53,865 nucleotides of DNA from a virus. Positions 10,135 to 49,925 of this stretch are shown here, piece after piece. The notes under the pieces are model-generated. The model saw nothing but the letters and a program-made list of their open reading frames with translations, searched no databases and was not told where the DNA came from. The stretch covers positions 1 through 53,865 of the IMG/VR virus record IMGVR_UViG_3300029267_001426, one strand, 5' to 3'. The position numbers and the translations under genes were made by a program. The stretch's first letter is position 1. Each line of letters opens with the position of its first letter.

Positions 10135-10162
10135 GTCATGGTCCTTTCTTGTGTGATAGTGG

Positions 10163-10906
10163 CTAGTCTGGCCAGGTCAGTTCAGGTCTGGCCCTTTCCA
10201 GTTCCTGTCTGAACATTGCCCTGAATGCAGCCATGTCCAGCTTGCAGCCATCCACAGGGCCTGGTGGATCGATCGGTGGGTCCTGATCGCCGATGGCCAC
10301 ATGGACCAGGCTGGCATGGTCCAGGATGACATCAGCATGCTTGGATTTCCATTTATTCCATCCCCGCAGACAGACCACCAGGCTGTCAGCCATGGCCATG
10401 ATGGGTGGGGTTTCCAGGACCTGGAATTCAGCCCCCACATAGGCCCAAGGGGTCCAGACTGTGCCAGGGGTCCACTGGCCAGCCCCCCGGTCCCCCACCA
10501 GGTCAGCCTGTCCCCAGGGGTTCAGGCCCAGGCTGATATACATTTCACGCTCACTGACCCTGGGGTCATCCCTGTTGGAACACCATGCCTGGACATTCAT
10601 GGACAGCTGATAGAACTGGCCAGGCTGGATGCCCTGCTGGACCACTTGCATGACCCCAGCGTCCATGGTCCTGTGGAACACAAAGAAACACTGGCTGGAC
10701 GTCCCATTCTGGACCCTATAGGGAAACTGTGCCCCCACCAGTTCCTTGTATTCTGGCCTGGCTGTGGGTCCCTGGTGCTGTTCCTGGGGGACACTGGACC
10801 TTTCTTTCCAGACAGGCTGCCAATGCTGGGACAGAATCCCCTCTGGGAAACTGGCCTGGGAATAGGGGCCATCAAGGTTGGGATTCTGGATCAAATTCTG
10901 TGACAT
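10163..10906 (-). CDS. Carbohydrate-binding (CBM4/9-like jelly-roll) protein
   Basis: The N terminus NLIQNPNLDG...W..W is typical of CBM_4_9 modules. AGAAAGGA lies 5 nt before ATG 10906. The C-terminal 22 aa are shared with the next gene upstream. Confidence 0.5.
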   Translation of the reverse strand: MSQNLIQNPNLDGPYSQASFPEGILSQHWQPVWKERSSVPQEQHQGPTARPEYKELVGAQFPYRVQNGTSSQCFFVFHRTMDAGVMQVVQQGIQPGQFYQLSMNVQAWCSNRDDPRVSEREMYISLGLNPWGQADLVGDRGAGQWTPGTVWTPWAYVGAEFQVLETPPIMAMADSLVVCLRGWNKWKSKHADVILDHASLVHVAIGDQDPPIDPPGPVDGCKLDMAAFRAMFRQELERARPELTWPD

Positions 10907-10935
10907 GTGGGTCCTTTCTGGTGGCAATGGCCACC

Positions 10936-12003: not shown

Positions 12004-12329
12004 TGGTCCCCCTGTTCTGGCTGTTCGTCGCCGGCCGCTGCTGCCTGCTGGGCTGCCATCTGTTTCATCCTGGCTTTCATCCCTGGGGTCATCATAAGAA
12101 ATTCAGTTCTGACAGCCTCACAGGCTGACATGCCCAGTTCTGGTGTCACACCAGCTGAGAAATCAAAAGAAATCCTGGGCTGCTGCTGCCCTGGGGAATA
12201 GGCCAGGCTGATGGTTATGATCTGATTCCCCCTGGTCATGTCAATGACTGGCAGCCCATTCAATGTTTCACCCTCTGGGGGCTGTTCCGAGGATGCCCCC
12301 TGGTCCTGTTCCTTGCCCTGGTCTGTCAA
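12000..12329 (-). CDS. Hypothetical protein (109 aa)
   Basis: TTG start preceded by GAAAGGGGA. This is the first gene after the candidate promoter at 12385..12413. Confidence 0.5.
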   Translation of the reverse strand: MTDQGKEQDQGASSEQPPEGETLNGLPVIDMTRGNQIITISLAYSPGQQQPRISFDFSAGVTPELGMSACEAVRTEFLMMTPGMKARMKQMAAQQAAAAGDEQPEQGDQ

Positions 12330-12384
12330 TGTGGTCCCCTTTCCTGTGGTGTGGCCCTGGTCCCCCCAGGACCTGGCTGATTAT

Positions 12385-12413
12385 ATGATACCAGCAGACA
12401 AGCTGGCAGTCAA
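12385..12413 (-). promoter_or_regulatory. Candidate sigma70 promoter for the lysis cassette
   Basis: On the minus strand: TTGACT (12413..12408), a 17-nt spacer, then TATCAT (12390..12385). It sits in the only TA-rich patch of this intergenic gap. Confidence 0.4.
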
Positions 12414-12417
12414 GGCA

Positions 12418-15400: not shown

Positions 15401-15831
15401 ATGATGTAGCCAACAGCCACGCCTGGCAGATAGGTGGACAGCAGGGTCTGAATCTCTGTGCTGTCAGTGTCCCCAGCATCAATGGTATAGTCATCAATGA
15501 CAGTCCTGTCCAACAGGACATTATAATCCTGACAGCTATACCTGGCCCCTGTGTTAGGCCCCAGCCTGACCCTTTCCCGCTGGGTCACTATGCCAGCAAA
15601 GAACCCCATGCCTGTGGTGGCATCTGTGATCCTGATTTCCTCCCCTGGGGCAGGCAGCCTGCTGCCAGGTTCCACCAGGCCAAAACGTGCTATGGCCAGG
15701 CCATTGCCAGCCACCCTTTCAGTCTGCGCGATCGGCAAGCCCAGCAAAGGATAGCCCAGCCAGGGACACTGGTCTGTCAGGTCTGACCAGGCAGGCCCAC
15801 CATAATTGGTTTCAATCTTTAGAACACCCAT
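12418..15831 (-). CDS. Tail fiber / receptor-binding protein with N-terminal tail-tip (Dit-like) region
   Basis: 1137 aa, immediately after the tape measure gene. It has at least 7 D/N-H-x-H motifs (ADHQH, SDHIHSH, HDHQH, NHTH, SHTH, DHVH, DHSH), as in metal-binding phage fiber shafts, and an internal 100-aa duplication. Confidence 0.75.
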   Translation of the reverse strand: MGVLKIETNYGGPAWSDLTDQCPWLGYPLLGLPIAQTERVAGNGLAIARFGLVEPGSRLPAPGEEIRITDATTGMGFFAGIVTQRERVRLGPNTGARYSCQDYNVLLDRTVIDDYTIDAGDTDSTEIQTLLSTYLPGVAVGYIMTLNASLEEIHIQGTFRQALEAIAAQAGGAYFYVSQGKSLYYVDDPSSIPGMTGAWNLTDDIQDAFDMPYGQYYEREDESQKIDQVYVVGDGVEGWYPDPPTGEYQAIVHDTNVTTQDGIDAVGAALIDAYGDGITERRLVCWDDPAWEYKYLSLTHSHWVPGGEFLWVRRAVMRPRNDTGSEREYEIELGHQTVDRNNLGGGNSNSPARGPIFGADETEPITPDDPTEPGVSRFAARADHQHGFAIGIPGPIGTSDQAGVADTMNRSDHIHSHPAGLGANLHHNQVHVLATNSALGPDHTISGATAGHVLRATSATAARFMAIQASDVPSLGGTPALTFSTSNAGGSAATYVRTDAQIHLFNTSDPDILTPDQTGDPGTAVRASRHDHQHAISCAAPTGSLTESSTNTEGNATTFARSNHTHALDLSASYAPINAPFLTVGGVSGLSAERYISMGNGLDSSDGGANGAYTVWLGTPSTLNVTSTNGTTATSHTHQVTSSNNPGAGQSILATDTNGQVQIRRLGIGTTSSQDNSIEMVDDAWIGLAYNGPRFRFQDTGTDRIEVMDTDLDFTTSGKGFIHTDGNTAGWGFFGNGTRFLPRAIQASDLPSLGGTPALSFSTSNAAGSASTYVRTDATIALFDGNVPDVLTPDQSGNTGSASVAARRDHVHSIATAAPSSNLSFSSGNSEGSGAYFARADHSHAITTSNNPGTTSAILASNSGGGLALSGTLQIAEYVAHLGDIDTYVRFRDDRLTLAAGAVNMVDCVEAATNYVALGAQLRMGGRAIFLDADNDTYLYTMGVDDQLGLYVGGSLTYNFTASALEIGQAGSTILEIRTSGNVAGAESDIWGHEQLGLSADRNVGIFIDCDDSTGTNNFFAVLKDDDDFTLATEVFRIQEDGRMGIGTNSPGAIGHFVQDDTGGNIPVLRLDQDDNDRDFISLVGTGADGNKTRCLVSEDDSGVSGMVTKGYFKVYIQDDGNRITDGYYHVAFGTLN
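13294..13599 (-). repeat. Intragenic repeat B of the fiber gene (aa 745-846)
   Basis: IQASDLPSLGGTPALSFSTSNAAGSASTYVRTDA...FARADHSHAI. Confidence 0.8.
14128..14433 (-). repeat. Intragenic repeat A of the fiber gene (aa 467-568)
   Basis: IQASDVPSLGGTPALTFSTSNAGGSAATYVRTDA...FARSNHTHAL. It is about 65 percent identical to repeat B, and the similarity is visible at the DNA level. Confidence 0.8.
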
Positions 15832-28524: not shown

Positions 28525-30033
28525 TCAGTTTTCCTTTCTAGGTGTGGGGTCCAGGACCCCTTTCAATTCATTCAACGCTTGGCCCAGGGCATTTCTGGCA
28601 TCCTGGTCCAGGGCCTGTGGGCTGCCGTCTAGGTCCAGCCCAGCACCATCCTGGCCAGGGGCATCCAGCCCCAGTCTTTTCTGGACCAGGGCCTTGGCTG
28701 CCCTGATCCCCCTATATGTCAGCTGACAGATGCCCAGTCCCCGGTGGGGGCTGCCGTCTAGGTCCAGCCCCTTGACCAGGCTTTCCCTGGGCAGGGTCAG
28801 CAAAACATCAGACAAGTCACGCACGTCCCAGGCATCTGACTGGACCAGCCTTTCATCAGTGGCATCCCTGCCACCAGTGGACCAGACAGCATCCTCCCCC
28901 CACTTTTCACTGTAGAATGGAATGGGGGGCACATAGAAACAGTCAAGGCCCTTGATGGTCTGGCCAGCATCTGGGTGGGGGATTTCAGTCAGGTCCCCAG
29001 TGTCAGGGTCAAAGTCCAATTTCGTGGCATCCTCTGGGATGTCCATCACCCAAGGGCTGAAACAGGCCAGGGCCAGCTGGACCCCTGTGTTGGTTTCCAC
29101 CTCGAGACGACGAACCCAGGCCAGGTCATCCCCCTGGGGCTGGGCCTTGCATTGGTCACATAGGAAAGGCAGGCCCCTGGCTGTCAGCAGTTTGACCACT
29201 GACTGGGTGGCCTGGAAATCTGACCCGCAATTCCTACAAACACAGTCAACAGGGTCAGCCCCTGGGGCAGCCAGGTCATAGACCTGAATGGCATACTGGC
29301 CACTAGGGGCCACAGCTGTTGAACAGTTATGGTCTGACCAGGTCCCTGTGATGGGGTCCTGGACCAGCCGCTGTTCAGCATCAGCCATCACCCTGCCTAT
29401 GAATGCCTGGGCCTTTTCACCATCAGACAAGGTGGCTGTGGTGTCAGACTGCAAGGTCCCAGCTGATGGCCAGGTCAAGCCCTGGGGGGCAGCCTGGGCC
29501 TTGAATTCAGCAGCATCTGGCCAGACCCAGGCCCTGGTGTCCAGCCCCTGGTCCCTGGCATAGGCCAGACCCTTGGCCATCGCGCGCAGGGCATCAGCAT
29601 TGGCAGGGACTGGCACAAGTGAAACCTCCAACAGTTCAGAATCCAGGAAATCCAGGCCCCCAGAATCGTTGTCTTTCCACTTAAGGGGCTGGAATCCGAT
29701 GCTGAAAGCCCTGACAAAGTCCTGGTCCCATAACAGCTGAATGATGTGCATGGGGTCCTGGGGGCTGGCTGGTGGCCGCCATACTGGCAGCAATTTCAGG
29801 CCATCCTGGGTGGGTTCCACCTCAGTGGCGCGGCCGATGACAGCAAAGGGGTCAGCATAGTTATGGCCCCACAGGACCACAGGGTTTCTTTCATAATTGC
29901 CCAGCCGCAGGCCCAGAACCCTGTCTGACTGCCTGTCCAGCCCAGCTGTGCTGACTGTGACCTTGCCATTGGGGTCCTTTTGGATGGTGAATTCTTTGTG
30001 GACCACACCCAGGGGGAATTTGTTGTCATTCAT
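28525..30033 (-). CDS. Prohead serine protease (HK97/S78 family) with 330-aa C-terminal extension
   Basis: VLWGHNY (His) and AFSIGF (Ser), followed by LEVSLVPVPAN. The extension carries CVCRNCG...CDQC and a duplicated GLDLDGSP motif. ATG in a TAATG overlap with the portal stop. Confidence 0.8.
   Translation of the reverse strand: MNDNKFPLGVVHKEFTIQKDPNGKVTVSTAGLDRQSDRVLGLRLGNYERNPVVLWGHNYADPFAVIGRATEVEPTQDGLKLLPVWRPPASPQDPMHIIQLLWDQDFVRAFSIGFQPLKWKDNDSGGLDFLDSELLEVSLVPVPANADALRAMAKGLAYARDQGLDTRAWVWPDAAEFKAQAAPQGLTWPSAGTLQSDTTATLSDGEKAQAFIGRVMADAEQRLVQDPITGTWSDHNCSTAVAPSGQYAIQVYDLAAPGADPVDCVCRNCGSDFQATQSVVKLLTARGLPFLCDQCKAQPQGDDLAWVRRLEVETNTGVQLALACFSPWVMDIPEDATKLDFDPDTGDLTEIPHPDAGQTIKGLDCFYVPPIPFYSEKWGEDAVWSTGGRDATDERLVQSDAWDVRDLSDVLLTLPRESLVKGLDLDGSPHRGLGICQLTYRGIRAAKALVQKRLGLDAPGQDGAGLDLDGSPQALDQDARNALGQALNELKGVLDPTPRKEN
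28619..28641. repeat. 23-nt direct repeat copy 1 (gggctgccgtctaggtccagccc)
   Basis: Identical to 28748..28770. It has internally palindromic arms GGGCTG/CAGCCC and encodes GLDLDGSP on the minus strand. Confidence 0.85.
28748..28770. repeat. 23-nt direct repeat copy 2
   Basis: Exact copy of 28619..28641. Confidence 0.85.
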
Positions 30034-32399
30034 TACACATAGCTCCACATCTGGTCTGGGCTTGCCCCAGCCACTAGGTAAACAGCATCACACCGACATT
30101 GTATATTCTCAGCTGGCACAGTCCCCATCCTGGGGGCCAGCATCCTGTCAGCCCCTATCTGGAATTGGTCATCCAGACCAATGGGGGCTTTGCTATAGGT
30201 CAGATGGGCATCAAAGTGGGTGTCCCTGGTTCTTTCGTCCATAGCAGCCAGCCATGTTTTCTGTTCAATGACCCCAGACTGTCTGGCTGATTCCTGCCTG
30301 CCAATGGACCTGGCTTTCCCCATTTCTGTTCTGGCAATTCTCTGCCTCTGCCAGTCCTCAGTCCTTAGCCCAAAGACATTGTCAGTTCTGATGCCCAGTT
30401 CTTTCTGGGTCTGCCAGGCTGTCCAGCCATTGTCAGCAGCATCTGTCAACAGCTGCCGCAGGGCCTTTTCAAGCTGTTCCAAGGTGGCCCCATTGATGTC
30501 ATCAGCAAACTTGAACCGCATGTCCTTGATGGCCTGCTGAATGTAGGGGACAGACATGTCAAAGGGGACATCAATGGCCAGTTTTGCCAGCACATCTGCC
30601 CCAGCTGCCCTGGTCATATCAGTATACAGGGGTTCATAGGCCAAGGCAAAAAACAGGACCCATTCATCCAGGTCAAAAAGGTCCTTGGCTGTGCTGGGGA
30701 TGTGGGGTTCCCTGCCCTCTGGGACATCCTCAGCCAAGGCAGCCACAGCCCTGGCCACAGCCTTGGCCTGCCTTTCCAGGTCCCTTTCCAGCTGGTCTGC
30801 CATCCTATTTTCAAAGGGCATGGACACACCCTGGATGGATTTCCACAGGGCCTTGTGGACCTGGCCACCATATTCTGGCCCCTGGGGCTGGACCTTGATC
30901 TGGGACACTGCTGCCCTGACCTGGGCCAGCTGTTCAATGGCATCACTGGCATCAGCTGTGATCTGGATGGCTGGGCCTGGGCCATCGGCTGTCAGGACCT
31001 GGCCAGGAACCCACAGTCCAGACATCCTGTCTGCCAGCTTGTCTGCCAGGCCATCCAGGGCCTGGGTGACAGACTGGTCAATCATCCCCTGAACCTGGGC
31101 TGGTTCCATGCCAGTGGGGGCTGTTCTCTCAGCTGCTGCCAGGATGGGCATCACTCCAATGGGCACAAAGCCCACATCCCCACCAGGGACTGGCCCCAGG
31201 TCTAGGCCCAGCCTGTCATTGATCATGTTCCAAGGGATGCCCATGGACCAGTATTTCTGGGCAGCATCAGCCTTGACTGTGATGTCCTCTTGGACAGCCT
31301 TGACTGTTGAAAGGTCAGTGGCCACCCTTTCCCCAGCTGTCAGCATGGGCCTGGTCCTGGTGAAAAAGGACGACAAGGTCAGGTCCCTGGCCCTGATGAA
31401 TGGCAGCAGGGTCAGCAGCCACAGCCACTGGTGTGCCTGGTCCATGTTTTCATAGGTGTCCTTGCCCCAGCCCATGACCTCGTCTGGGATGCCCAGGATG
31501 CTGCCAACAGCCTGCCGACTGTTCCCCCTTTGTTCAAGCCATTGGACGTCAACAGGGGGAAAGCTGAAAGACTTGATGTCTGTGACCCCATGTTCTAGCA
31601 CGATCGGTTTATGCCAGTTATCTGGTCCCTGGTGTTTCTCAGTCAGGATGGCCAGATATTCATCCCTTTCTGTGGGTCCCAAGCCCTCTGGGGCAATCAA
31701 GGCATAGTCTGGCCTGGCGCCATTTTTCAGAAACCTCTGGGACCACTGCTGGGCATAGATGTCAATGGTGACATCCTCCCTGGCAGCTGAAATGGGGGAC
31801 AAGCCCCGCCAAGCTGACAGGGGATTGACATACTTGTCATGGATGACCTGGTCCCTGCCTAGATTCACATCGTCAGCAGTCTGGTCAGTGTAACCAGCTA
31901 CAATGGGAAAGCCCAGCCTGGCCTGGGTTTCATCTGGAATGACCAGCATCTGGTCAGGTCTGCGCGCCCACAGTTCAGCTGGCTGGCCAGCCCTGTCATC
32001 AATGACCCTGATGAAAGATTCCCCACCCAGCAACTTGTGTAAACAATAGGACTGCCACAGGTCTGCTGGTTTCTCAGATTCATTGACATGGCCCAGCAGC
32101 TGGGTCAGGGGATGGCTGTCCTGGGGTTCCCCATCAGAATTGACCACCCTGACTGGCAGGGCTGCCACAGAATTGGCATAGATGGTCACAGCCTTGGCCA
32201 CCCAGACATAGCTTTGATAGACTGTGGCCCAGCCCACATATTCTGAAATCTGCTGCTGGAATCCCTGGTCAGCAGATGAACTGTATACATGTTGCCGCCC
32301 CTCGAGTTCAGGGTGATGGCTGATTGCCTTGCCAGTCAACAGCTGCCAGGCTGCCCTGGCCCTTTGCAAAAAAGTCATCTGGTCCACTTGTGTTGTCAT
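30033..32399 (-). CDS. Portal protein fused to a Mu F / SPP1 gp7-like head morphogenesis domain
   Basis: The N-terminal 480 aa or so is HK97-type portal. The C terminus has IARTEMGKA...DERTRDTH...IQCRCD, typical of Phage_Mu_F. ATGA overlap with terL. Confidence 0.85.
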   Translation of the reverse strand: MTTQVDQMTFLQRARAAWQLLTGKAISHHPELEGRQHVYSSSADQGFQQQISEYVGWATVYQSYVWVAKAVTIYANSVAALPVRVVNSDGEPQDSHPLTQLLGHVNESEKPADLWQSYCLHKLLGGESFIRVIDDRAGQPAELWARRPDQMLVIPDETQARLGFPIVAGYTDQTADDVNLGRDQVIHDKYVNPLSAWRGLSPISAAREDVTIDIYAQQWSQRFLKNGARPDYALIAPEGLGPTERDEYLAILTEKHQGPDNWHKPIVLEHGVTDIKSFSFPPVDVQWLEQRGNSRQAVGSILGIPDEVMGWGKDTYENMDQAHQWLWLLTLLPFIRARDLTLSSFFTRTRPMLTAGERVATDLSTVKAVQEDITVKADAAQKYWSMGIPWNMINDRLGLDLGPVPGGDVGFVPIGVMPILAAAERTAPTGMEPAQVQGMIDQSVTQALDGLADKLADRMSGLWVPGQVLTADGPGPAIQITADASDAIEQLAQVRAAVSQIKVQPQGPEYGGQVHKALWKSIQGVSMPFENRMADQLERDLERQAKAVARAVAALAEDVPEGREPHIPSTAKDLFDLDEWVLFFALAYEPLYTDMTRAAGADVLAKLAIDVPFDMSVPYIQQAIKDMRFKFADDINGATLEQLEKALRQLLTDAADNGWTAWQTQKELGIRTDNVFGLRTEDWQRQRIARTEMGKARSIGRQESARQSGVIEQKTWLAAMDERTRDTHFDAHLTYSKAPIGLDDQFQIGADRMLAPRMGTVPAENIQCRCDAVYLVAGASPDQMWSYV

Positions 32400-33787
32400 G
32401 CTGCCCTGCCCCTTAACCAGACCCAGTTTTCAAGGGCCTGACATGCGTGATCATTCCCATCAGCTGGGTCATCCTCAAAGGACCCATCCCTGTTTTCTTT
32501 GTTCCTATAGCCTGATGTGATTTCATCCAGCAGGCTGACACATCTGGGATGAATCATCAAGGTCCTGACCCCTTGGCCATCCTTGATCAATGCCCTGGTT
32601 TCCCTGATGGCTGCCTTTCTTGTGCTGCTTTCCCCCTTGACCTTTCTGGCCATCCAATTCCTGGCAGGGATGTCAGCCTGGGTCAATCGTCGACGCAGGG
32701 CCACCGCTTCATGGGCCACTGCTGCCAGTTCTGGGAACCTGACCCCATGTGCCCTCAGCCAGATGGACCTGTCCTGATACCTGGTGAATGTTTCTGGCAT
32801 GGGGGCCTTGTGGCCTGCCAGCCTGTGTTCATGTTCCAAGGCTGCCCAGGGGGACTGTTCATAAAGTCTGGTCTGGATGTCCCTGATGGTCTGTTCCTCC
32901 AATTGCCTTGATCTGTAATTCTCAGCAAAGACCAGGGCCTTGGAACCCTGTTTCTGAACCCAGACCACTGCCCTGGGATCAATGTAGCCATCGTCAATGC
33001 CCAGTTCAAAGGGCAGCTGGGGATCATAGTCCATCTGGTCTGTGACATTGGCATCACTGAAATCAGCATAGACCAGACCGCTGACTGGTATATACCAGTC
33101 GCCATCCACCCAGGCCCTTTGCAGTCTGGGTGGCAAGGTGGCCAGCATGTCCCAGTAGCCCTGGTCAAGGTGGGGATTGTCCCTGGGCAAGGCGCGCACA
33201 AAGGCGAATTCATGTTCATGCCCAGCCATGTGGTCTGGCATCTGCTTTTCAACAAAAAGGGACCTGACCCACTTGAAATATTTGCCATCAGGGTTAGTGG
33301 CCCCAGCCAGAAAGACGTCACTGATGCCTGGCCATCTTAAGGACCCTCTGAGAATGTCAAAGACCTTGGGTGGGTTTTTGGTCAGTTCATCTATGCCCAT
33401 CCCTGCGAATTCTACAGATTGATACTTGCTGGGGTCATCCAGGTTTCTTAACAGAATCCCGCCCCCACCATAGCAGTCATGCAAGAACCAGCCCAGGCCA
33501 TCTGCTTTCGTGGTCCCCAAGTAGCCCAGCCAGTCAGGGAATTCAGCCAGCTTGGAAATCTGCCTGTCCTTAAGGCTTGGGTAGTCCTCGCAAAACAGCC
33601 CCACCCTGACCCTTTCATGGCCCTGCTGTGCCCACAGCAGCAGCCGCCGCACAAGATACCACCTTAGCCAGAATGATTTCCCAGGACCCCTGGCCCCACC
33701 GAATAAAGTGTATTTGTGGGTGTCAGCTGCCCTGGTGGCATCCATCTGCTTTGTGGTGAATGTGCAAAGGTCAGAAAGTTTGACCAT
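32396..33787 (-). CDS. terL: Terminase large subunit
   Basis: Walker A LFGGARGPGKS, with a nuclease-half pattern downstream. TGATG overlap with terS. It lies just upstream of the portal gene. Confidence 0.9.
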   Translation of the reverse strand: MVKLSDLCTFTTKQMDATRAADTHKYTLFGGARGPGKSFWLRWYLVRRLLLWAQQGHERVRVGLFCEDYPSLKDRQISKLAEFPDWLGYLGTTKADGLGWFLHDCYGGGGILLRNLDDPSKYQSVEFAGMGIDELTKNPPKVFDILRGSLRWPGISDVFLAGATNPDGKYFKWVRSLFVEKQMPDHMAGHEHEFAFVRALPRDNPHLDQGYWDMLATLPPRLQRAWVDGDWYIPVSGLVYADFSDANVTDQMDYDPQLPFELGIDDGYIDPRAVVWVQKQGSKALVFAENYRSRQLEEQTIRDIQTRLYEQSPWAALEHEHRLAGHKAPMPETFTRYQDRSIWLRAHGVRFPELAAVAHEAVALRRRLTQADIPARNWMARKVKGESSTRKAAIRETRALIKDGQGVRTLMIHPRCVSLLDEITSGYRNKENRDGSFEDDPADGNDHACQALENWVWLRGRAA

Positions 33788-34203
33788 CAGAAATCCACTG
33801 TGATCAAGGGGCTGCCCTTGATGTCCACTTGGGTTCTTTCAGTGTATAGGCCAAGTAGCTTGGCCTCGTCTTGTAAGATTCTCAGCTTGAATTCTGGGTC
33901 CTGGCTTTTGCGTCTCAGTTCTCGCCGGGCTGCTATGGCCTGGCCTAGTGCCGACACCATGCATTCATCTGTTATTTCAGCCAGCCTGGCCCTTGCCTTG
34001 TATATGTAATTTCTGGCCTGCCTGTGCCCCAGGTCCCATTCTTTGGAAATAAAAGGAACCAGGGCCTGGTCATCCCAGCCATCACATATCAGCTGAAAGA
34101 CAGTATTGATCCGCTTGGCCAATTCCCCATTGGTGGCCCTTTTTTTCTTGGGCTGGTCCTGGTCCTTGCCCTTGCCCTTGTCCTTGTCAGCCATTGCCCC
34201 CAT
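33787..34203 (-). CDS. terS: Terminase small subunit
   Basis: 138 aa with a basic N terminus and a helical DNA-binding-like core (RQARNYIYKARARL). It lies immediately upstream of terL. Confidence 0.65.
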   Translation of the reverse strand: MGAMADKDKGKGKDQDQPKKKRATNGELAKRINTVFQLICDGWDDQALVPFISKEWDLGHRQARNYIYKARARLAEITDECMVSALGQAIAARRELRRKSQDPEFKLRILQDEAKLLGLYTERTQVDIKGSPLITVDF

Positions 34204-34206
34204 CCA

Positions 34207-34941
34207 TCACTTGATGGCCACCCAGCCACAGAAATTCATCCACCTCCAGAAACAGTCAACAGCCCTGAACCCAGCCTGGGTCAGCAGCTGTTCATTCCAG
34301 GCAGCTGTCACAGGGACCAGGACCCCTGACAGGGCCAGCCGCTTTCTTTCAATGTCATCCTGGGAATAGCCATTCTGGGCCTTGAATCCGTGGTATAGGT
34401 CCACCATCAGGCCATTGACCTGGGCAGTGGCCCCCAGGACCTTTTCCACCAGGATGAATGCCCCACCATCTTGCAAGCTGTCATAGACGTCCTGGACCAG
34501 CTGCTGTCTACATTCCAGGGGGACAAACATCATAGTCAGGATGGACTGGATGACACTGGCCATGCAAGGGGGGAAATCCTTGGCCAGGTCCAGGTCCTTG
34601 ATTCTGACACAAGGGCTGGGGCCATCCACAAAGCCCCCAAAACGATCGCGCAAGACGTCAAGCATAGGGGGGCTGGTTTCCACCAGGACAAAGCTGTTGG
34701 TCATTCCCCACAGGTCCACCAGGGGGGCAATGCTGGCCCCTCGACTAGCCCCCAGGTCCACTATGTCAGTGTGGGGCATCCTGAACCTGACAGCCAGGTC
34801 ATAGCATGCGCGCCGCATCACATCCAGCTGGGGGATGGACCTGGCCAGCATGTCATCAAAAACCTGGGTGACCTGGTCATCAAAGGCCCAGCGGTCTGGA
34901 CTGTAGCCTGTGTCAGTTGGGTGATCCTGTGAATGATCCAT
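34207..34941 (-). CDS. cmoA: CmoA-like carboxy-S-adenosylmethionine (Cx-SAM) synthase
   Basis: 244 aa, collinear end to end with E. coli CmoA as I recall it: WAFDDQVTQVFDDMLARSIPQ, motif I VDLGASRG, FILVEK, YHGFKAQNGYSQDDIERKR, and C-terminal WMNFCGWVAIK. The start at ATG 34941 comes after the upstream TAG. The longer track ORF is rejected. Confidence 0.8.
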   Translation of the reverse strand: MDHSQDHPTDTGYSPDRWAFDDQVTQVFDDMLARSIPQLDVMRRACYDLAVRFRMPHTDIVDLGASRGASIAPLVDLWGMTNSFVLVETSPPMLDVLRDRFGGFVDGPSPCVRIKDLDLAKDFPPCMASVIQSILTMMFVPLECRQQLVQDVYDSLQDGGAFILVEKVLGATAQVNGLMVDLYHGFKAQNGYSQDDIERKRLALSGVLVPVTAAWNEQLLTQAGFRAVDCFWRWMNFCGWVAIK

Positions 34942-34954
34942 TGATCCTGTCCCC

Positions 34955-36358
34955 CTATGCCTGGACCCCTGAAAAGGCCCTGATGAATTCTGCCCTATAG
35001 AATCGGGCTGGACTGGGCAGTCTGTTTCTGATGGCAGCCTTGATGCCCATCCCATCCTGGAAAGCCAGCTTGGGCCTTTCACAGATGTGGTCAGGCAGAA
35101 TGCCCCTATAGGCCAGGGACAGGACTGCCTTTTCCTTTTCGTGCTCAGCAGGCCCCCTGACAGCTGCCCTGGAAAGGCCCAGGGCATACTGAACCAAGCC
35201 CTGGGACAAAAAGGGTAGTCTACATTCTACACCATAGGCCATGAATGCTTTGTTAGCCCTGGCGAAATTTTTCCTATGCTGCCCCAAGAAAAGGCCCCGC
35301 CGATAGGCATGCCAGCCAGATGAAATGACCCCATGATAGCTGAAACCATAGCTGGCCCACAGTTCGTCTGAACCCTCCCCAGAATAGGTCACCTTGAACC
35401 CATCCTGGGCCATGGCCTTGGCCAAGTGTAGGCAGGGCCAGCCAATTTCCACTTGGGCCTTGTGGGGCATTTCAATGATCTGGACCACCCTGGCCAGGTC
35501 ATCCCTACCAGGGCAAGGGACTGGGATTTCTTTCAGATGGACACCCAGCTGGCCGCAGATGTGCCGAGCAGCAGCCAGGTCCTTTGAATGGGGATTATAG
35601 ACAGCAGTATAGGCAGTCACATCCCTGAAATGCTGGACCAGATGCCATAGAACAGCCGATGAATCAATGCCCCCAGAAATCAGGCAGCAGACAGGGACAT
35701 CAGACAAGGTTCTGGCCAGGACCCCATCCTTGACCAATGTCTTGACCTGGACTGATGCCTGGACCAGGTCATCTGGCAGCCTGCCTGGCTGAATCTCAGC
35801 AAAGGGCCTGGCAATCATCCCATCCTTGTGGGCAGACACCACATAGCCAGGCTGAACCCAGGAAACAGACCTGGGATGGCAGCCCATGGCCAGCAGGGCC
35901 TTGATTTCAGATGCAAAGCAGAAAGGCTGCTGCTGGCTGATGTGGACTGGGATTTCCCCAAAGATGTCCCTGGCCACAAAGACCTGGCCATCTGCCCAGG
36001 ACCAGGCCATGGCAAACATCCCATCAAACTTGGGCAGGGCATCCAGGCCCCATTCATTCAAAGCCGCGGCTATAATCTCAGTGTCCCCAGTGGTCCTGAA
36101 CTGGTGGCCGAGCTCGAGCAATTCAGCCTTGATCTGGGCACAGTTCCACAGTTCCCCATTATAGACCAGGTCCAGGCCATCCCTGTGGAATGGCTGGTCT
36201 GACCTGGGCAAGGGGTCCAGAATAGCCAGCCTGGTGGCCCCCAGAAAGGCTGACCCAGACTTGACCAGCCCCTGGCCATCAGGCCCCCTGTGGACCAAGG
36301 CAGCCATGCCCTGTAGGGTGGCCTTTTCTGACCTGAACCCGCCGACTATACCACACAT
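34955..36358 (-). CDS. Asparagine synthetase B-type glutamine amidotransferase / amidoligase (as a separate gene from the internal ATG)
   Basis: MCGIVGG (Ntn Cys2), HRGPDGQG, RLAILD, YNGELWN, GMFAMAW, PP-loop CLISGGIDSS and YSGEGSDELW. AAGGTGG lies 7 nt before ATG 36358. Confidence 0.7.
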   Translation of the reverse strand: MCGIVGGFRSEKATLQGMAALVHRGPDGQGLVKSGSAFLGATRLAILDPLPRSDQPFHRDGLDLVYNGELWNCAQIKAELLELGHQFRTTGDTEIIAAALNEWGLDALPKFDGMFAMAWSWADGQVFVARDIFGEIPVHISQQQPFCFASEIKALLAMGCHPRSVSWVQPGYVVSAHKDGMIARPFAEIQPGRLPDDLVQASVQVKTLVKDGVLARTLSDVPVCCLISGGIDSSAVLWHLVQHFRDVTAYTAVYNPHSKDLAAARHICGQLGVHLKEIPVPCPGRDDLARVVQIIEMPHKAQVEIGWPCLHLAKAMAQDGFKVTYSGEGSDELWASYGFSYHGVISSGWHAYRRGLFLGQHRKNFARANKAFMAYGVECRLPFLSQGLVQYALGLSRAAVRGPAEHEKEKAVLSLAYRGILPDHICERPKLAFQDGMGIKAAIRNRLPSPARFYRAEFIRAFSGVQA

Positions 36359-37522
36359 CAGACAGCCACCTTGGCCAGGACCTGGTCCCTGATCGCCGAT
36401 GCAAGATGGCACATCATAAGGGGGGGGGACTGCCCTGCCCAGCCTTTCCCATCGCTTATTATAGGACCCTGTCAGCTGGAAATCTGCTGGGAAAGAACAG
36501 ATGGCCATCACTTCTGGGATGGTAAACTTGCGCCGCCTGGGGGATGTGGGCTGGCCAGCCTGGTCCTGGTCCCTTTCTATGTATAGATGGCCTGGGCCTG
36601 CCTGCCTGACTGTGGGGGCTGGCCTGCTGGTGAAATCCCCCATGCCCCAGCTGCCCCCTGTGTCCTCGATTGCCCGGACAGTCCCAGCCAGGGCATCAGC
36701 CACAGTATAATAGTAGGGCAAGGGGCTGGGCCAGGCATGGTCCACATCCAGGTCATCCCTGATGCCCTGGAAAAATAGCCTTTCCCTGGACTGGGGGACA
36801 CCCAGCCACTGGGCATCAAGTTTGACCACCTTGACCCTATAGCCGCAATCTTTCAGCAGGGCCAGAATCTGCAAGAAATAACCCTTGGCCTTGCCCCTGA
36901 CCAGCCCTGGGACATTCTCAGCCAAGAATACCTTGGGCCTGATGCCCTTGACCAGCCTGGCATATTCCCAGAACAGGTCATCTGTTCTTTGCTGGGTGTC
37001 AGAATATGCTTTCACCTTGCCCCAGTCCTTTTCCCTGTGGCCAATGACTGAAAAGGACGCACATGGGGGGCTGCCATCCATCAGGTCAAGGTCACCCTGC
37101 CCCAGGCCGATGGCATCAAGGATTTCAGCAGCTGTGACCTGTCTGATGTCCCTGGTGTCAAGGATGCTGCCTGGGTGATTCAGCCTGTAGACCTCTTGGG
37201 CAGCTGGGACAAATTCATTGGCCCATAAGACCTTGAACCCAGCCATGCGCAGGCCGAGACAAGAACCACCAGCCCCAGAAAAGGTGGAAATGGCCCTGAA
37301 CCCATTCCAGGGGACCTGTTCAATGTCTGCCATGCTGGGCAGCTGGTATGGTGGCTTGAATGTCCTGTCTTTTCCAGGCACTATTTCACCCTCTAGCCAA
37401 TAGTGTGATAGATTGTCCCCACAGATGCCCCCAGCCAAGATGGCTGGGCTGGGCTGTCTGTCCAGGTCAAAACGCTCCACCATGGGTGTCATCCCATTGG
37501 GGTTATGGTGACAAAGAATCAT
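34955..37522 (-). CDS. Continuous ORF as assembled: C5-cytosine DNA methyltransferase-like domain fused in frame to the AsnB-like domain
   Basis: There is no stop between the two halves in the given sequence. ATG 37522 is in an ATGA overlap with the ParB-like gene. Alternative starts are 37540 and 37333. The fusion depends on the 9-nt homopolymer at 36420..36428. Confidence 0.6.
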   Translation of the reverse strand: MILCHHNPNGMTPMVERFDLDRQPSPAILAGGICGDNLSHYWLEGEIVPGKDRTFKPPYQLPSMADIEQVPWNGFRAISTFSGAGGSCLGLRMAGFKVLWANEFVPAAQEVYRLNHPGSILDTRDIRQVTAAEILDAIGLGQGDLDLMDGSPPCASFSVIGHREKDWGKVKAYSDTQQRTDDLFWEYARLVKGIRPKVFLAENVPGLVRGKAKGYFLQILALLKDCGYRVKVVKLDAQWLGVPQSRERLFFQGIRDDLDVDHAWPSPLPYYYTVADALAGTVRAIEDTGGSWGMGDFTSRPAPTVRQAGPGHLYIERDQDQAGQPTSPRRRKFTIPEVMAICSFPADFQLTGSYNKRWERLGRAVPPPYDVPSCIGDQGPGPGQGGCLMCGIVGGFRSEKATLQGMAALVHRGPDGQGLVKSGSAFLGATRLAILDPLPRSDQPFHRDGLDLVYNGELWNCAQIKAELLELGHQFRTTGDTEIIAAALNEWGLDALPKFDGMFAMAWSWADGQVFVARDIFGEIPVHISQQQPFCFASEIKALLAMGCHPRSVSWVQPGYVVSAHKDGMIARPFAEIQPGRLPDDLVQASVQVKTLVKDGVLARTLSDVPVCCLISGGIDSSAVLWHLVQHFRDVTAYTAVYNPHSKDLAAARHICGQLGVHLKEIPVPCPGRDDLARVVQIIEMPHKAQVEIGWPCLHLAKAMAQDGFKVTYSGEGSDELWASYGFSYHGVISSGWHAYRRGLFLGQHRKNFARANKAFMAYGVECRLPFLSQGLVQYALGLSRAAVRGPAEHEKEKAVLSLAYRGILPDHICERPKLAFQDGMGIKAAIRNRLPSPARFYRAEFIRAFSGVQA
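36358..37522 (-). CDS. C5-cytosine DNA methyltransferase-like enzyme (predicted carboxymethyltransferase). The stand-alone form needs an 8-nt homopolymer.
   Basis: Motifs: I FSGAGGSCLG, IV SPPCASFS, VI LAENVPG, VIII QSRERLF, IX RKFTIPEVMAICSFPADF and X LGRAVPP. With one C fewer the C terminus reads AVPPLMMCHLASAIRDQVLAKVAV and stops at TGA 36358..36360. Confidence 0.6.
36420..36428. repeat. G9 (C9 on the coding strand) homopolymer inside MTase motif X
   Basis: This is the longest G/C run I saw in the window. It encodes the PPP of GRAVPPP. Confidence 0.9.
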
Positions 37523-38124
37523 CTGGGCTGCCCAGACCATTCATAGCCACAGCTGGGGCATCTGTAGTCTGTTTCCAGTTCATCACCATATTCCTGAAAG
37601 GCCTCTGGGGCCTGGTCCTGTTCAGCCAGCCGCCGAAAAAGGGCCAGGTCATCAGTGTCCACTGTCACAGGCAGCTGGTCTGCTGTGTTCAAGGTTTCCA
37701 AGAACTGGGCATAATTGGCATCATAGACCCTGCTGATGTCCAGCTGGGTGACATCCCCACCAGCCATGACCAGGCTGTTGTGATCGATGCTATAGGCCCA
37801 GGCAGCATGTTCACTGGCAGCATCCACACCAAAGATGACCGGGACTGCCCAGTCATCAGATTCCTGTTCAAGCAAGATGCCCCTGGGCACAGGGTCCCCC
37901 TGGCCTTTCATCCAAGTCAGGGCCTGGATTCTGCCATTGCCAGCCACTATGCCACCCTTGCCACCATTCAGGGTGGGTTCCCACTTGGGTGGGTCCTTGA
38001 ACCCATGCCGCTTGATTGAATCAATTATGGAACCAAGGTCATGCAGTTTGACATTCTGGGCAAACAGCAGGCATGTGGCAAGTGGGACATATTCAAGGCG
38101 CAATTTCTCAGCAGGGCTGGACAA
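37519..38124 (-). CDS. ParB N-terminal (ParB/Srx-like nuclease) domain protein with C-terminal Zn-ribbon
   Basis: LRLEYVPLATCLL...NVKLHDLGSIIDSIKRHGF...VAGNGRIQAL matches the ParB-like fold pattern. TTG start 7 nt after AAAGGA. The C terminus has CPSCGYEW. Confidence 0.7.
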   Translation of the reverse strand: MSSPAEKLRLEYVPLATCLLFAQNVKLHDLGSIIDSIKRHGFKDPPKWEPTLNGGKGGIVAGNGRIQALTWMKGQGDPVPRGILLEQESDDWAVPVIFGVDAASEHAAWAYSIDHNSLVMAGGDVTQLDISRVYDANYAQFLETLNTADQLPVTVDTDDLALFRRLAEQDQAPEAFQEYGDELETDYRCPSCGYEWSGQPR

Positions 38125-38540
38125 GTGGTCATCCTTTCGAGTGTGGCAGCCATCCTGGTCAGATTGACCACTGTGACATGGGCTGTGCCCTTGTATGTGG
38201 CCAGGGCTGTTGGGGCATCAAGAATGATGGGCTGGGTGGGGTCTAGGTCTACTCTGTAGGGTGAATCTGGGCCAAGGTTCCCAGAATCAAGGGCTGTGGC
38301 AAAAAAAGGGGCAGCCCCCTGGGGCAGGGCCAGAATCTTTTCCCGACAAGACCACCAGGTCTGGCCTGGGGGCAGGGCCACCCAGGGCTGGGCTGCCAGC
38401 TGCTGTTCTGTATAGTAGTATGAATGGACCCCATCTGAACAGTATAGGGGATTGCCCCTGTGGGGTTCTAGATCATAGGTGGTTCCCATCCCTGTGACAG
38501 AAAAGATGGCCATCAGGGTCAGGATGATTGATTCCATCAT
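38025..38540 (-). CDS. Secreted protein with DPBB/3D-like (RlpA/MltA-type) cell-wall-binding or lytic domain
   Basis: Signal peptide MMESIILTLMAIFSVTG, then ...VALPPGQ...FFATALDSGNLGP...YRVDL. The 3' end overlaps the ParB-like gene by 100 nt in another frame. The start was chosen at M65 of the track ORF. Confidence 0.45.
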   Translation of the reverse strand: MMESIILTLMAIFSVTGMGTTYDLEPHRGNPLYCSDGVHSYYYTEQQLAAQPWVALPPGQTWWSCREKILALPQGAAPFFATALDSGNLGPDSPYRVDLDPTQPIILDAPTALATYKGTAHVTVVNLTRMAATLERMTTCPALLRNCALNMSHLPHACCLPRMSNCMTLVP

Positions 38541-38832
38541 GTTTGGATACACATCCAAAAAACCCCTTTTCAGTGGGGCCTGGTTCAGGCTGCCACAGGT
38601 GGGGGGGAACCCATGACAATTATGGCCTTGCCCACCATCACCAGGCCCACTTTCCATCTTTGCCGACCAAGACAAAGGACGGAACAAAAAGAAAGGATGG
38701 CAGCCAGCCTGGTGAAAGGTCCCCAGCCGCATCCTGGCATATACACTGCCCAGGCTGGCTGTGTCCCTGGCCCGGTGGTCTGTGGGTGGTCAATCCACGC
38801 CCCCCAGGCTTGCCAGCAGGAAACACAATTTG

Positions 38833-38861
38833 AGTATACCATAACAGCTGGACACTGTCAA
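38833..38861 (-). promoter_or_regulatory. Leftward sigma70-type promoter
   Basis: On the minus strand: TTGACA (38861..38856), a 17-nt spacer, then TATACT (38838..38833). It is divergent from the promoter at 38897. Confidence 0.65.
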
Positions 38862-38896
38862 CAGTCCCCCAGTCCTAGATTGATTATATGACTTGC

Positions 38897-38925
38897 TTGA
38901 CAGGACCATATAACTGTGGTACAAT
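38897..38925 (+). promoter_or_regulatory. Rightward sigma70-type promoter
   Basis: TTGACA (38897..38902), a 17-nt spacer, then TACAAT (38920..38925). It is nearly identical to the element at 41224. Confidence 0.7.
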
Positions 38926-40759: not shown

Positions 40760-40792
40760 CAGGCCCCCTGGGCCTAGAAAAGGAACCTGACC

Positions 40793-41170
40793 ATGACCTA
40801 TGAAAGCCATGAACTGACCGATGCTATGAACCAGGCCCAGCTGGCCTATGCCCAAGCTATGTGGGCTTGTGTGGACCACATCAGGGGCCAGCTTGGGATG
40901 CTGTGCAAGCCTGATGGGTCCCCTGACCTGGATGGGGCCAATGCCCTGGATGTGGGCAGGCTGAATGATGGCAGCTGTGACCCTGGGGCTGTGGCTGCTG
41001 AGATTGAAACCCTGCGCGCCAAGCTGGATGCCCTGCTGTCCCTGCTGATAGGGATGCCCCACACCCAGGCTGTGGACTGTGGCCAGTGTGAACTGGCAAT
41101 GATGACCAAGATGACTGCCAGTCAGCCTGGCCAGCCCATGGGTCCCTGGTCCAAGCCCATTGGGTCCTAG
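40793..41170 (+). CDS. Hypothetical protein (125 aa)
   Basis: AGAAAAGGAA lies upstream of the ATG. Confidence 0.65.
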   Translation: MTYESHELTDAMNQAQLAYAQAMWACVDHIRGQLGMLCKPDGSPDLDGANALDVGRLNDGSCDPGAVAAEIETLRAKLDALLSLLIGMPHTQAVDCGQCELAMMTKMTASQPGQPMGPWSKPIGS

Positions 41171-48754: not shown

Positions 48755-49317
48755 TGAATAGCTATAGGGCCAGCAAAGGCAAAAGGGGCAAGCCCATTGG
48801 CTGGGCTGACTTGCCTGGTGTGGTCTATCTGCTACACTTTGACAAGCCCCACCATCATGCCCAGCACTATCTGGGCTTTTCTCAGCAGCTGGAAACCAGG
48901 CTGGGCAAGCATTTCAGTGGCAATGGGACTGGCTTGACTCGAGTGATCAAAGAACAGGCAAACAACCATGCAGTCCTGGCCAGGACCTGGCCACACCCAG
49001 CTGGCCTGGGACCTGTGCCAGACAGCCAGCTGGTGGACCAATGTGTTGAAATGGTCCTGAAAGCCAGGGCTGAAAGCCCCAGGCTGTGCCCCATCTGTAA
49101 CCCGGACAAGGCCCTGTCCTTGGCCAGGTATTACACTGTCAAGCCCACAGCTGCTGACCTGGATGGCCAGGACCCTGATGACTGTGAATGGTGGAAACAT
49201 GACCTGGGTCTATTCGTTTTTACTTATGATCCAGACCTGGACCTGATGACAGCTGCCCCACCAGAAAGGACAGACACATGCCAGACATCCCTGGCAACCT
49301 TAGAAATGCTATTCTGA
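48754..49317 (+). CDS. GIY-YIG-like nuclease family protein
   Basis: TGATG overlap with the upstream gene. GVVYLLHFDKPHHHAQHYLGFSQQLETRLGKHFSGNG resembles the GIY-YIG-related phage family. Confidence 0.45.
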   Translation: MNSYRASKGKRGKPIGWADLPGVVYLLHFDKPHHHAQHYLGFSQQLETRLGKHFSGNGTGLTRVIKEQANNHAVLARTWPHPAGLGPVPDSQLVDQCVEMVLKARAESPRLCPICNPDKALSLARYYTVKPTAADLDGQDPDDCEWWKHDLGLFVFTYDPDLDLMTAAPPERTDTCQTSLATLEMLF

Positions 49318-49925
49318 ATGTGGATGCCAGGGACCTGGCTGACCAGCTGCCTGATGCATCCATTGACCTGGTGTTCACTGACCCTGTCTATGACCAGCTG
49401 GATGACTATTTCTGGCTGGCCAAGACAGCTGCCAGGGTCCTGAAACCTGACAGAAATCTGCTGGCCTGGGCCAGTGTGCCCAAGGCTGCCAGGGTCCAGG
49501 GAATGATGGAAATCAGCCCCCTGGACTATGTCTATACCTTGACCTATACCGTGAAAGCCAAGACCTATAGAATGCGCGGCTATCACCTTTTTTGCTGGAC
49601 CACACCCTGTCTGTGGTTCAGAAAAGGGGCTGGGTTCATGCCTGACCCCTGGGTCCCAGACACGTTCATCAGCAGCAAAAGACCTGATGGCGCTCACAAG
49701 TGGAACAAAAACCAGGCTGTCCTTGGGGCCTGGCTGAAAGCATACTGCCCCCCAGGGGGCACAGTCTGGGACCCATTCTGTGGGGGCGGGTCAATCCCTG
49801 TTATGTGCAAGATGCTGGGCCTGACCTATGTGGCATCTGAGATTGATCCAGACACAACAGCCATGGCCATAGACAGGCTGGCCAACACGCTGCCCCTTTT
49901 TGAAATGATCCAGGGGCAATTCTGA
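49278..49925 (+). CDS. Beta-class amino DNA methyltransferase (N6-adenine or N4-cytosine)
   Basis: Motif IV IDLVFTDPVY precedes motif I VWDPFCGGGS, which is the beta-class order. AGAAAGGA lies 7 nt before the ATG. Confidence 0.75.
   Translation: MPDIPGNLRNAILNVDARDLADQLPDASIDLVFTDPVYDQLDDYFWLAKTAARVLKPDRNLLAWASVPKAARVQGMMEISPLDYVYTLTYTVKAKTYRMRGYHLFCWTTPCLWFRKGAGFMPDPWVPDTFISSKRPDGAHKWNKNQAVLGAWLKAYCPPGGTVWDPFCGGGSIPVMCKMLGLTYVASEIDPDTTAMAIDRLANTLPLFEMIQGQF

Follow-up and report, generated by a model that had tools for sequence, protein, structure and literature searches.

A phage gene cassette predicted to carboxymethylate cytosine in DNA and then amidate the product

The window analysed here, the whole 53,865-nucleotide stretch of IMG/VR virus record IMGVR_UViG_3300029267_001426, comes from an uncultured tailed phage of ~53.9 kb and carries on its minus strand, ahead of the packaging genes, a four-gene cassette. 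It encodes a ParB/Srx-like protein, a homologue of DNA cytosine C5-methyltransferases (C5-MTases; henceforth referred to as CmoX), a glutamine-type amidoligase and a homologue of CmoA, the synthase of carboxy-S-adenosylmethionine (Cx-SAM). Our reading of the cassette, to which we assign a probability of roughly 70%, is that CmoA makes Cx-SAM, CmoX uses it to convert cytosine in phage DNA to 5-carboxymethylcytosine (5cxmC), and the ligase amidates this base to 5-carbamoylmethylcytosine. Judged from sequence, the first two steps (Cx-SAM synthesis and carboxymethylation of cytosine at C5) very probably take place as described, and ammonia is probably the amine that the ligase uses. The cassette belongs to a CmoA/CmoX kind that has already been published, as the first-pass annotation of this DNA had suspected; the amide-forming branch is predicted in the literature, and for the window we infer the amide product.

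The phage pathway leading from CmoA through CmoX to a ligase was published in December 2025 for Synechococcus phage S-B43 (Yang et al., Nat Commun 17:281; PMC12783734). In that system CmoA produces Cx-SAM, and SpCmoX, a C5-MTase homologue, forms 5cxmC at GC sites with Cx-SAM as its only usable donor, the wild-type enzyme having no activity on S-adenosylmethionine (SAM); the crystal structure 8YF3 places Arg350 of SpCmoX on the carboxylate of Cx-SAM (PMC12783734). SpCmoY, a synthetase-only homologue of asparagine synthetase, ligates glycine onto 5cxmC in DNA and is the only characterised ligase of CmoA/CmoX systems (PMC12783734). Yang et al. describe several ligase clusters with differing pockets, and the second largest cluster of AMP-forming ligases (representative A0A7T0Q3R0) carries a glutaminase domain, for which glutamine-derived ammonia was predicted as the amine; the one enzyme of this type that they tried was insoluble (PMC12783734). 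A literature search for follow-up work on the glutamine-type ligase, and for papers or preprints that describe 5-carbamoylmethylcytosine as a base in DNA, found none. As cited by Yang et al., the engineered C5-MTase M.MpeI N374K (Wang and Kohli) accepts Cx-SAM and makes 5cxmC (PMC12783734).

The first half of the minus-strand open reading frame (ORF) at 34955..37540 matches Pfam DNA_methylase (6.5e-49) and NCBIfam dcm (6e-43), with TIGR00675 above its cut-off, and alignments place the C5-MTase motifs I, IV, VI, VIII, IX and X in canonical order. Its closest match in the Protein Data Bank is SpCmoX (8YF3, 5e-53), followed by M.HaeIII (1.6e-23), in agreement with its annotation as a DNA C5-cytosine MTase; the annotated start at 37522 likewise agrees with the N-termini of homologues (MTLWFCHHNPNG... 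vs MILCHHNPNG...). The SPPC motif that holds the catalytic Cys (SpCmoX S95-C98) is present, with GSPPCASFS of the window aligning with GSPPCSAFS of 8YF3, and is invariant in the alignment. At the column of SpCmoX R350, where ERLGRAVPP of the window aligns with ERVGRMVPP, both proteins have an Arg and SAM-using MTases have an Asn. The equivalents of the reported Cx-SAM contacts F25, E47, F48, D69, C98 and R350 are all invariant in a 22-sequence alignment, and C5-MTases that lie beside ligase relatives in IMG/VR loci have the Arg at the R350 column in 65/65 cases and the Cys in 66/66. The phage CmoA gene stands in the same operon, 1.4 kb downstream of CmoX, and this association is repeated in related loci.

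The ORF at 34207..34941 (minus strand), annotated as collinear with CmoA throughout, does match the CmoA model TIGR00740 along its whole length (1.2e-40, 139.6 bits, covering 14-239 of 239 positions), and no competing methyltransferase family in NCBIfam does better than E 0.006. It also matches phrog_4752 (6.8e-68) and the E. coli CmoA structure 4GEK (4e-28), and has 32% identity with E. coli CmoA across 228 residues. When aligned by MAFFT with the CmoA proteins of E. coli and H. influenzae, it retains Arg199, which forms a salt bridge to the Cx-SAM carboxylate (PMC3663124), as well as Glu164, Asp62, Gly64 and Phe137. As annotated, the window contains no gene resembling CmoB (best tblastn E 0.16; no match to Methyltransf_9), and neither a chorismate mutase nor a second C5-MTase was found elsewhere in it.

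The second half of the ORF 34955..37540 matches Pfam GATase_7/GATase_6 (1e-27) and Asn_synthase (9e-36) as well as the NCBIfam model asn_synth_AEB (5.9e-75; 253 bits). An alignment with E. coli AsnB (1CT9, 2e-39) pairs RLAILD with RLSIVD, NGELWN with NGEIYN, GDTEII with GSDCEVI and SGGIDSS with SGGLDSS, SGEGSDE being identical in both, and the glutamine-site residues of AsnB (R49, N74-G75-E76, D98), the PP-loop SGGxDS and the two-domain fold are all kept. An AlphaFold2 (AF2) model of the ligase (predicted local distance difference test, pLDDT, 92.5) can be superposed on AsnB and on human ASNS at template modelling (TM) scores of 0.83-0.85 (Foldseek; 0.83 to 1CT9). These results bear out the annotation of a class II, N-terminal nucleophile (Ntn) glutamine amidotransferase joined to a PP-loop synthetase; overall, DNA_methylase, GATase_7/Asn_synthase and the CmoA model each match the unit predicted to contain them, and every motif quoted for the three units is present in the order given, with the domains as placed, an agreement far beyond what chance would produce. 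Across 39 homologues of 48-61% identity, C2, R43, L44, G68, E69, D92, SGGxDS, GEGSDE and R367/N369/K370 are invariant, and the invariance of the glutaminase residues argues for selection on glutamine hydrolysis. MCGIVGG begins at the ATG, with the Cys nucleophile right after the initiator Met, and a Shine-Dalgarno (SD)-like AAGGTGG lies 7 nt upstream of this ATG, so that translation can start at the ligase itself and leave its Cys free at the N-terminus, as an Ntn glutaminase requires.

The ligase falls below the AsnB equivalog cut-offs (TIGR01536, 253.2 vs 267.1; NF006949, 226 vs 499), has 467 aa vs 553 aa in AsnB, and in place of the AsnB segment TTIRAS has KAQVEIG, which resembles KKTHFEC of SpCmoY; on this evidence it is not an asparagine synthetase proper. 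BLAST of SpCmoY against the window found no similarity, and hhalign relates the synthetase half distantly to SpCmoY, with a probability of 96% (E 1.4e-9, 22% identity over 213 columns). These comparisons assign the predicted ligase to the broader set of CmoX-associated AMP-forming ligases, outside the SpCmoY cluster. Amidation of 5cxmC by the AsnB-like enzyme, as first annotated, fits the prediction of Yang et al., the invariant glutaminase and PP-loop residues and the AsnB fold.

Taken together, the pathway would run as follows. CmoA, by homology to validated enzymes, would convert SAM and prephenate to Cx-SAM. CmoX would flip its target cytosine out of double-stranded phage DNA, the SPPC Cys would attack C6, and the carboxymethyl group of Cx-SAM, its carboxylate held by the motif-X arginine, would be moved to C5 to give 5cxmC, as homology and the diagnostic residues suggest. 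The PP-loop domain of the amidoligase would adenylate the carboxylate of 5cxmC with ATP, and the N-terminal Cys would hydrolyse glutamine, the ammonia being channelled to the acyl-adenylate to give 5-carbamoylmethylcytosine (nucleoside predicted at [M+H]+ ~285.12). The modified DNA would then be packaged, resistant to host nucleases. The supply of Cx-SAM by CmoA and the transfer of carboxymethyl to C5, both already proposed by the first-pass annotation, are supported by the S-B43 precedent, SPPC, the Arg at the R350 column and the contact residues.

The MTase, the ligase and CmoA had been listed as three separate units. In the window sequence no stop lies between the MTase and the amidotransferase, which form a single ORF of 861 codons (34955..37540, minus strand), and the boundary at 36358/36359 is exact for a form of the locus that is shorter by one base. 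A run of 9 C (minus strand, 36428..36420) lies within the motif-X VPPL codons; the one-base-longer run shifts the MTase frame, and MTase and ligase are thereby read as one ORF. In the version with eight C (C8, as opposed to C9), the MTase tail ends in ...GRAVPPLMMCHLASAIRDQVLAKVAV, followed by a TGA that shares bases with the start codon of MCGIVGG; deleting one C from the window gives a tail ending in ...WERLGRAVPPLMMCHLASAIRDQVLAKVAV before the stop, with a TGATG overlap with the ligase start. The C8-form tail agrees with those of gp123 of Streptomyces phage TurkishDelight (GRAVPPVMMSHIAAAVRDRVL), of SpCmoX (GRMVPPLMMKAIAENIYKEVL) and of every other homologue examined, and the corrected CmoX C-terminus is identical to that of protein P0003 of other assemblies. 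Both forms occur in the protein collection, as a 374-aa MTase with a separate 467-aa ligase and as 842/855-aa fusions. C8 is found in contigs JGI 3300017989, JGI 3300029258 and ENA ERZ27256770, and C9 in the window, ENA ERZ27256778 and Logan SRR6963311 and SRR14699967, with no other difference between the three C8 and the four C9 assemblies over up to 13.4 kb. Since otherwise 100% identical contigs carry C8 or C9, the fusion is a homopolymer-length variant. The 861-codon ORF is thus a one-base homopolymer variant and not a designed fusion, and the ninth C stems either from an assembly error or from real slippage heterogeneity.

We considered whether the ORF could encode a true bifunctional MTase-ligase, and rejected this candidate: the -1 frame past the C run encodes the C5-MTase tail VPPLMM..IA.. 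that is conserved in every homologue, identical C8 contigs exist, the homologues are all stand-alone, and an Ntn glutaminase requires a free Cys1. A selected phase-variation tract is not supported, as the window has 1 G/C run of at least 8, namely this tract, vs ~3.4 expected from its composition, and the tract is therefore not enriched.

Several observations weigh against the proposed pathway. The position of CmoA Tyr39, which contacts the methionine part of SAM in E. coli, is Leu in the window and Tyr in all eight other aligned sequences. The TIGR00740 score of the window CmoA, 139.6, is below the NCBIfam trusted cut-off of 193.3, a cut-off that is uninformative for phage enzymes since the biochemically validated SpCmoA scores just 115.6 (and TurkishDelight gp125 89.5). 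For every ligase of the glutaminase class, the amide product is so far a prediction. A terminator-like hairpin (38320->38306) separates the promoter-like site from the cassette. Finally, the C9 form deprives CmoX of its conserved C-terminal helix, and ribosomes would continue from CmoX into the ligase, whose Cys would then be internal; in the exact C9 sequence the cassette could be partly impaired.

The last point leads to an unlikely alternative, in which C9 is the true sequence and a CmoX-ligase fusion with a blocked N-terminal nucleophile leaves the cassette impaired or re-wired. The DNA would then remain 5cxmC, or unmodified if the altered CmoX C-terminus is inactive, and C8/C9 slippage would give heterogeneity of modification across the phage population. 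Consistent with this, C9 recurs in four assemblies and C8 in three with nothing else distinguishing them, ERZ27256770 and ERZ27256778, from one series, differ in the C tract only, and the +1 frame is open for exactly the 21 codons required to reach the ligase ATG in frame. However, several of the assemblies may share the same reads and so need not be independent; a frame that stays open for 21 codons is not improbable by chance; and the unenriched tract encodes the conserved VPPL of motif X. In addition, the proteins are stand-alone in all 120 best ligase homologues and in all CmoX homologues examined, and the ligase has an SD-like site and ATG of its own.

Quite improbable is a variant with the same CmoA/CmoX chemistry in which glycine, some other amino acid or a polyamine takes the place of ammonia as the amine that is joined to the base, and in which the glutaminase domain is regulatory or vestigial. 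The glycine-using SpCmoY provides the precedent, as do beta-lactam synthetase, carbapenam synthetase and lasso cyclases, which keep an N-terminal domain without using glutamine, and the different pockets of the several ligase clusters are compatible with it (PMC12783734). Against this, such glutamine-independent relatives have lost Cys1, whereas C2, R43, G68-E69 and D92 of the window ligase are invariant in its 39 homologues, and SpCmoY lacks a glutaminase domain altogether. We regard as very improbable a route in which the ligase amidates the cofactor, turning Cx-SAM into carbamoylmethyl-SAM, and the MTase transfers the amide group directly. Nothing direct speaks for this route; it would lead to an identical modified base and account for the lack of an obvious DNA-binding domain in the ligase. 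The carboxylate-binding Arg found in 65/65 CmoX proteins beside such ligases would be pointless for a neutral amide donor, and the homologous SpCmoY acts on 5cxmC in DNA. Hardly credible is the view that the three genes are auxiliary and have nothing to do with one another, one encoding a plain 5-methylcytosine MTase, one a CmoA that feeds the host tRNA cmo5U pathway and one an asparagine synthetase, as the database names 'DNA (cytosine-5)-methyltransferase 1', 'tRNA methyltransferase' and 'asparagine synthase (glutamine-hydrolysing)' would have it: motif X has Arg and not the Asn of SAM-using MTases, wild-type SpCmoX does not use SAM, the ligase scores under the AsnB equivalog cut-offs and is without TTIRAS, the window has no CmoB, and the three genes co-occur tightly, in varying order, across 72 viral loci.

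Those 72 loci are IMG/VR loci with a relative of the ligase, and essentially all that have enough flank contain adjacent CmoX-like and CmoA-like genes, in three different gene orders; in L086 and L089 the cassette again lies just upstream of the terminase genes. In locus L088 (ENA ERZ27247772 k141_153291), where CmoX is 61% identical to that of the window, a 262-aa synthetase-only PP-loop ligase of SpCmoY-like architecture (5216..6004) replaces the glutamine-type ligase, and ligase modules are thus swapped between closely related CmoX backbones. Chorismate mutase makes prephenate, the co-substrate of CmoA. In locus L090 (Logan SRR10132639_18512) a chorismate mutase (PF01817 CM_2, 184..438) lies immediately upstream of a 58%-identical CmoX relative, which suggests that some phages also secure the prephenate supply.

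The window shares with S-B43 a CmoA homologue, a C5-MTase homologue that carries SPPC together with the Arg for Cx-SAM binding (the two CmoX proteins being 34% identical), an adjacent ATP-dependent PP-loop amide ligase, the absence of CmoB, and the use of the carboxylate as a handle for amide formation. It differs in that its ligase, of 467 aa, has a complete class II glutaminase, whereas SpCmoY has 271 aa and is synthetase-only and glycine-using; in the gene order, CmoX-ligase-CmoA in the window vs CmoA-CmoY-CmoX in S-B43; in the ParB-like gene that belongs to the window operon; and in the phage itself, which is ~54 kb and without a close cultured relative, S-B43 being a T4-like cyanomyovirus. 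The target-recognition domain (TRD) of the window CmoX fails to align with that of SpCmoX, and the GC specificity of SpCmoX is therefore not transferable to it. Residues 1-53 of the window CmoX (37363..37522) form an N-terminal extension that is common to many homologues and absent from SpCmoX; its conserved motif PSPxI(M/L)AGG...N.SHYW(L/I)E resembles the TRD segment 'PxPT...GG...H' (RPAPTVRQAGPGHLYIE in the window CmoX), as if part of the TRD had been duplicated at the N-terminus.

TurkishDelight and the members of the second largest cluster of AMP-forming ligases share with the window a ligase with a glutamine-hydrolysing amidase domain, encoded beside CmoX and CmoA and predicted to use ammonia. 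Genes gp122-gp125 of TurkishDelight have the identical four-gene order (ParB-like, C5-MTase, GATase-ligase, CmoA-like), with identities to the window of 60% for the C5-MTase (core), 49% for the GATase-ligase, 26% for the CmoA-like protein and 27% for the ParB-like gp122; at the Arg199 column the CmoAs of TurkishDelight and S-B43 have other residues, whereas the window CmoA has Arg199. M.MpeI N374K shares with the window CmoX a basic residue at the motif-X Asn position that allows Cx-SAM use; it is engineered, CpG-specific and without a downstream ligase, whereas the window CmoX is natural and has Arg at that position. The tRNA cmo5U pathway of CmoA and CmoB shares the CmoA fold, the Arg199 carboxylate contact and the Cx-SAM cofactor, and differs in its acceptor, 5-hydroxyuridine 34 (ho5U34) of tRNA as opposed to the C5 of DNA cytosine proposed for the window, which is without CmoB. 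E. coli AsnB (1CT9) has in common with the window ligase the two domains, the Cys1 glutaminase, the PP-loop, the GEGSDE and ARANK motifs and a TM of 0.83, and differs from it in that the window ligase is ~90 residues shorter, has its aspartate-site TTIRAS segment replaced and stands among DNA-modification genes.

The features of the region are listed in Table 1. The cassette genes are translationally coupled and transcribed leftward, and their annotated location between a leftward promoter and the terminase genes agrees with a promoter-like site read 38861->38833 and with the large terminase subunit (TerL) and portal genes downstream. The three genes of the annotated module were confirmed; a fourth, the ParB/Srx-like gene at 37519..38124, had been overlooked. 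Its stop overlaps the CmoX ATG at 37522 (ATGA), and its product has a CPxC...W zinc-ribbon-like tail at the C-terminus, matches phrog_620 'ParB-like partition protein' (4.9e-10) and is homologous to TurkishDelight gp122 'ParB-like nuclease domain protein' (27% identity, E 2e-12). A Pfam search of this ORF gave no match, ParBc (PF02195) included. The AF2 model (pLDDT 92) has PadC, CTP-bound ParB, Noc, KorB and sulfiredoxin as its top Foldseek matches, with a probability of 1.00 but a TM of 0.38-0.53; the protein may serve as a nucleotide-dependent DNA clamp or load the modifying enzymes. An uncalled ORF lies between the promoter-like site and this gene (38150..38560, minus strand; MMESIILTLMAIF...); it has a hydrophobic N-terminus and contains the terminator-like hairpin, and the stretch may be a small gene, an attenuator or neither. 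The probable small terminase subunit (TerS) at 33787..34203 has no profile match in Pfam, NCBIfam or PHROGs, and a 50%-identical orthologue stands in the same position in the sister phage L083 (see below).

Table 1. Features of the cassette and its surroundings, with window coordinates
Feature	Position	Strand	Basis or detail
Promoter-like site	38833..38861	-	TTGACA-17-TATACT, TG-extended, 11/12 consensus matches (consensus scan)
Divergent promoter-like partner site	38897..38925	+	Consensus scan; pair spans 38833-38925
Terminator-like hairpin, G+C-rich, then T7	38306..38332	-	Between promoter-like site and cassette
ParB/Srx-fold protein, 201 aa	37519..38124	-	phrog_620, TurkishDelight homology, fold search
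CmoX-type DNA cytosine C5-carboxymethyltransferase (predicted), 387 aa after deleting one C	36358..37522	-	Pfam, 8YF3
C9 homopolymer (G9 on plus) within VPPL codons of motif X	36420..36428	-	
Gln-dependent amidoligase (predicted), 467 aa	34955..36358	-	Class II (Ntn) glutaminase and AsnB-type PP-loop domain
CmoA-type carboxy-SAM synthase (predicted), 244 aa	34207..34941	-	TIGR00740
Probable small terminase subunit, 138 aa	33787..34203	-	Position only; directly downstream of cassette
Large terminase subunit	32396..33787	-	phrog_2 9e-19
Portal/Mu-F fusion	30033..32399	-	phrog_2662 1e-76; Pfam Phage_portal and Phage_Mu_F

A DNA-level search of cultured phages gave a sole match, of 564 bp and 64% identity, in TurkishDelight, and no relative of the portal protein among them is more than 28% identical, which marks the phage as one without a close cultured relative; a search of GTDB genomes for prophages with a related TerL, made to infer the host, found nothing. 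The sister phage L083 (JGI 3300017963 Ga0180437_10000868, ~54 kb), whose TerL and portal are 67% and 55% identical to those of the window, shares the order ParB-like gene, cassette, TerS, TerL and portal. Its region 10001..15659 is syntenic with window 34207..38124 but holds a different modification-type cassette, consisting of a 423-aa CxxxCxxC radical-SAM-like protein, three PF20691 TAGT proteins and a radical SAM/SPASM protein, and the interval from the ParB-like gene to the terminase has the look of an island in which DNA-modification genes can be exchanged.

The window is extremely and uniformly depleted of CpG, with an observed/expected ratio (O/E) of 0.15 genome-wide, 0.09-0.26 in every 2-kb bin, 0.05-0.23 over all 16 NCGN contexts and 0.31, 0.07 and 0.14 at the three codon positions. 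NCG codons are nearly absent, Arg is mostly AGG, and over the whole window TpG/CpA is 1.63, CTGG/CCAG O/E 4.4 and TpA 0.35; at the G+C of the window, 57%, such CpG depletion is unusual. L083 has a CpG O/E of 0.95 and a G+C of 62%. At residues conserved between the two phages GCG accounts for 37/99 in L083 vs 1/99 in the window, and CGN for 58/76 Arg codons vs 17/76; Arg in L083 opposite Gln in the window occurs 10 times vs 2 for the reverse. Among cyanophages, GpC O/E is 0.67 in S-B43 and 0.72 in S-CRM01, which have the GpC-specific SpCmoX type, vs 0.95 in Syn9 and 0.89 in S-PM2, which do not, CpG O/E being similar in all four (0.48-0.67); on a comparison of these four genomes, depletion of the target dinucleotide may be linked to carboxymethylation.

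The normal CpG content of L083, which has another cassette, and the GpC depletion of the cyanophages fit a decay of target sites and hence a CpG-specific window CmoX, in which case the phage's own 5-substituted cytosines would have driven a vertebrate-like CpG decay genome-wide. We consider this doubtful. Seven other CmoX-bearing contigs are without CpG depletion, TpA is also very low in the window (0.35), and CpG depletion does not track with CmoX relatives that have a similar first half of the TRD (L088 1.21, L089 1.24, L090 1.39). The depletion would follow equally well from a host that is poor in CpG or from evasion of a defence directed at CpG, and some bacterial clades are themselves CpG-poor (PMC11282364). 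If true, this would be the first time that a virus of bacteria has depleted its own CpG through a hypermodified base.

Elsewhere in the window, an unrelated second DNA methyltransferase, N6_N4_Mtase, is encoded at 49278..49925 (plus strand; Pfam 1.8e-08, phrog_67 1.1e-23) and a PAPS-reductase-like protein at 7595..8428 (plus strand; phrog_424 5.3e-29, with a weak match to Pfam PAPS_reduct). ARAGORN calls a tRNA-Ala (AGC) of 91 nt at 40766..40856 (minus strand), which is of odd length in a region that is otherwise plus-strand coding and may be a false positive.

Overall, 5-carbamoylmethylcytosine in DNA, if true, would add a new natural DNA base. The window offers a well-defined and complete operon of four genes in another phage lineage, for which C8 provides a clean reference form, and more than 100 homologues form a pool from which a soluble enzyme of this chemically uncharacterised branch can be chosen. 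The C8/C9 switch, the swap of cassettes and the depletion of CpG are leads on how such cassettes evolve and on what they cost the genome.

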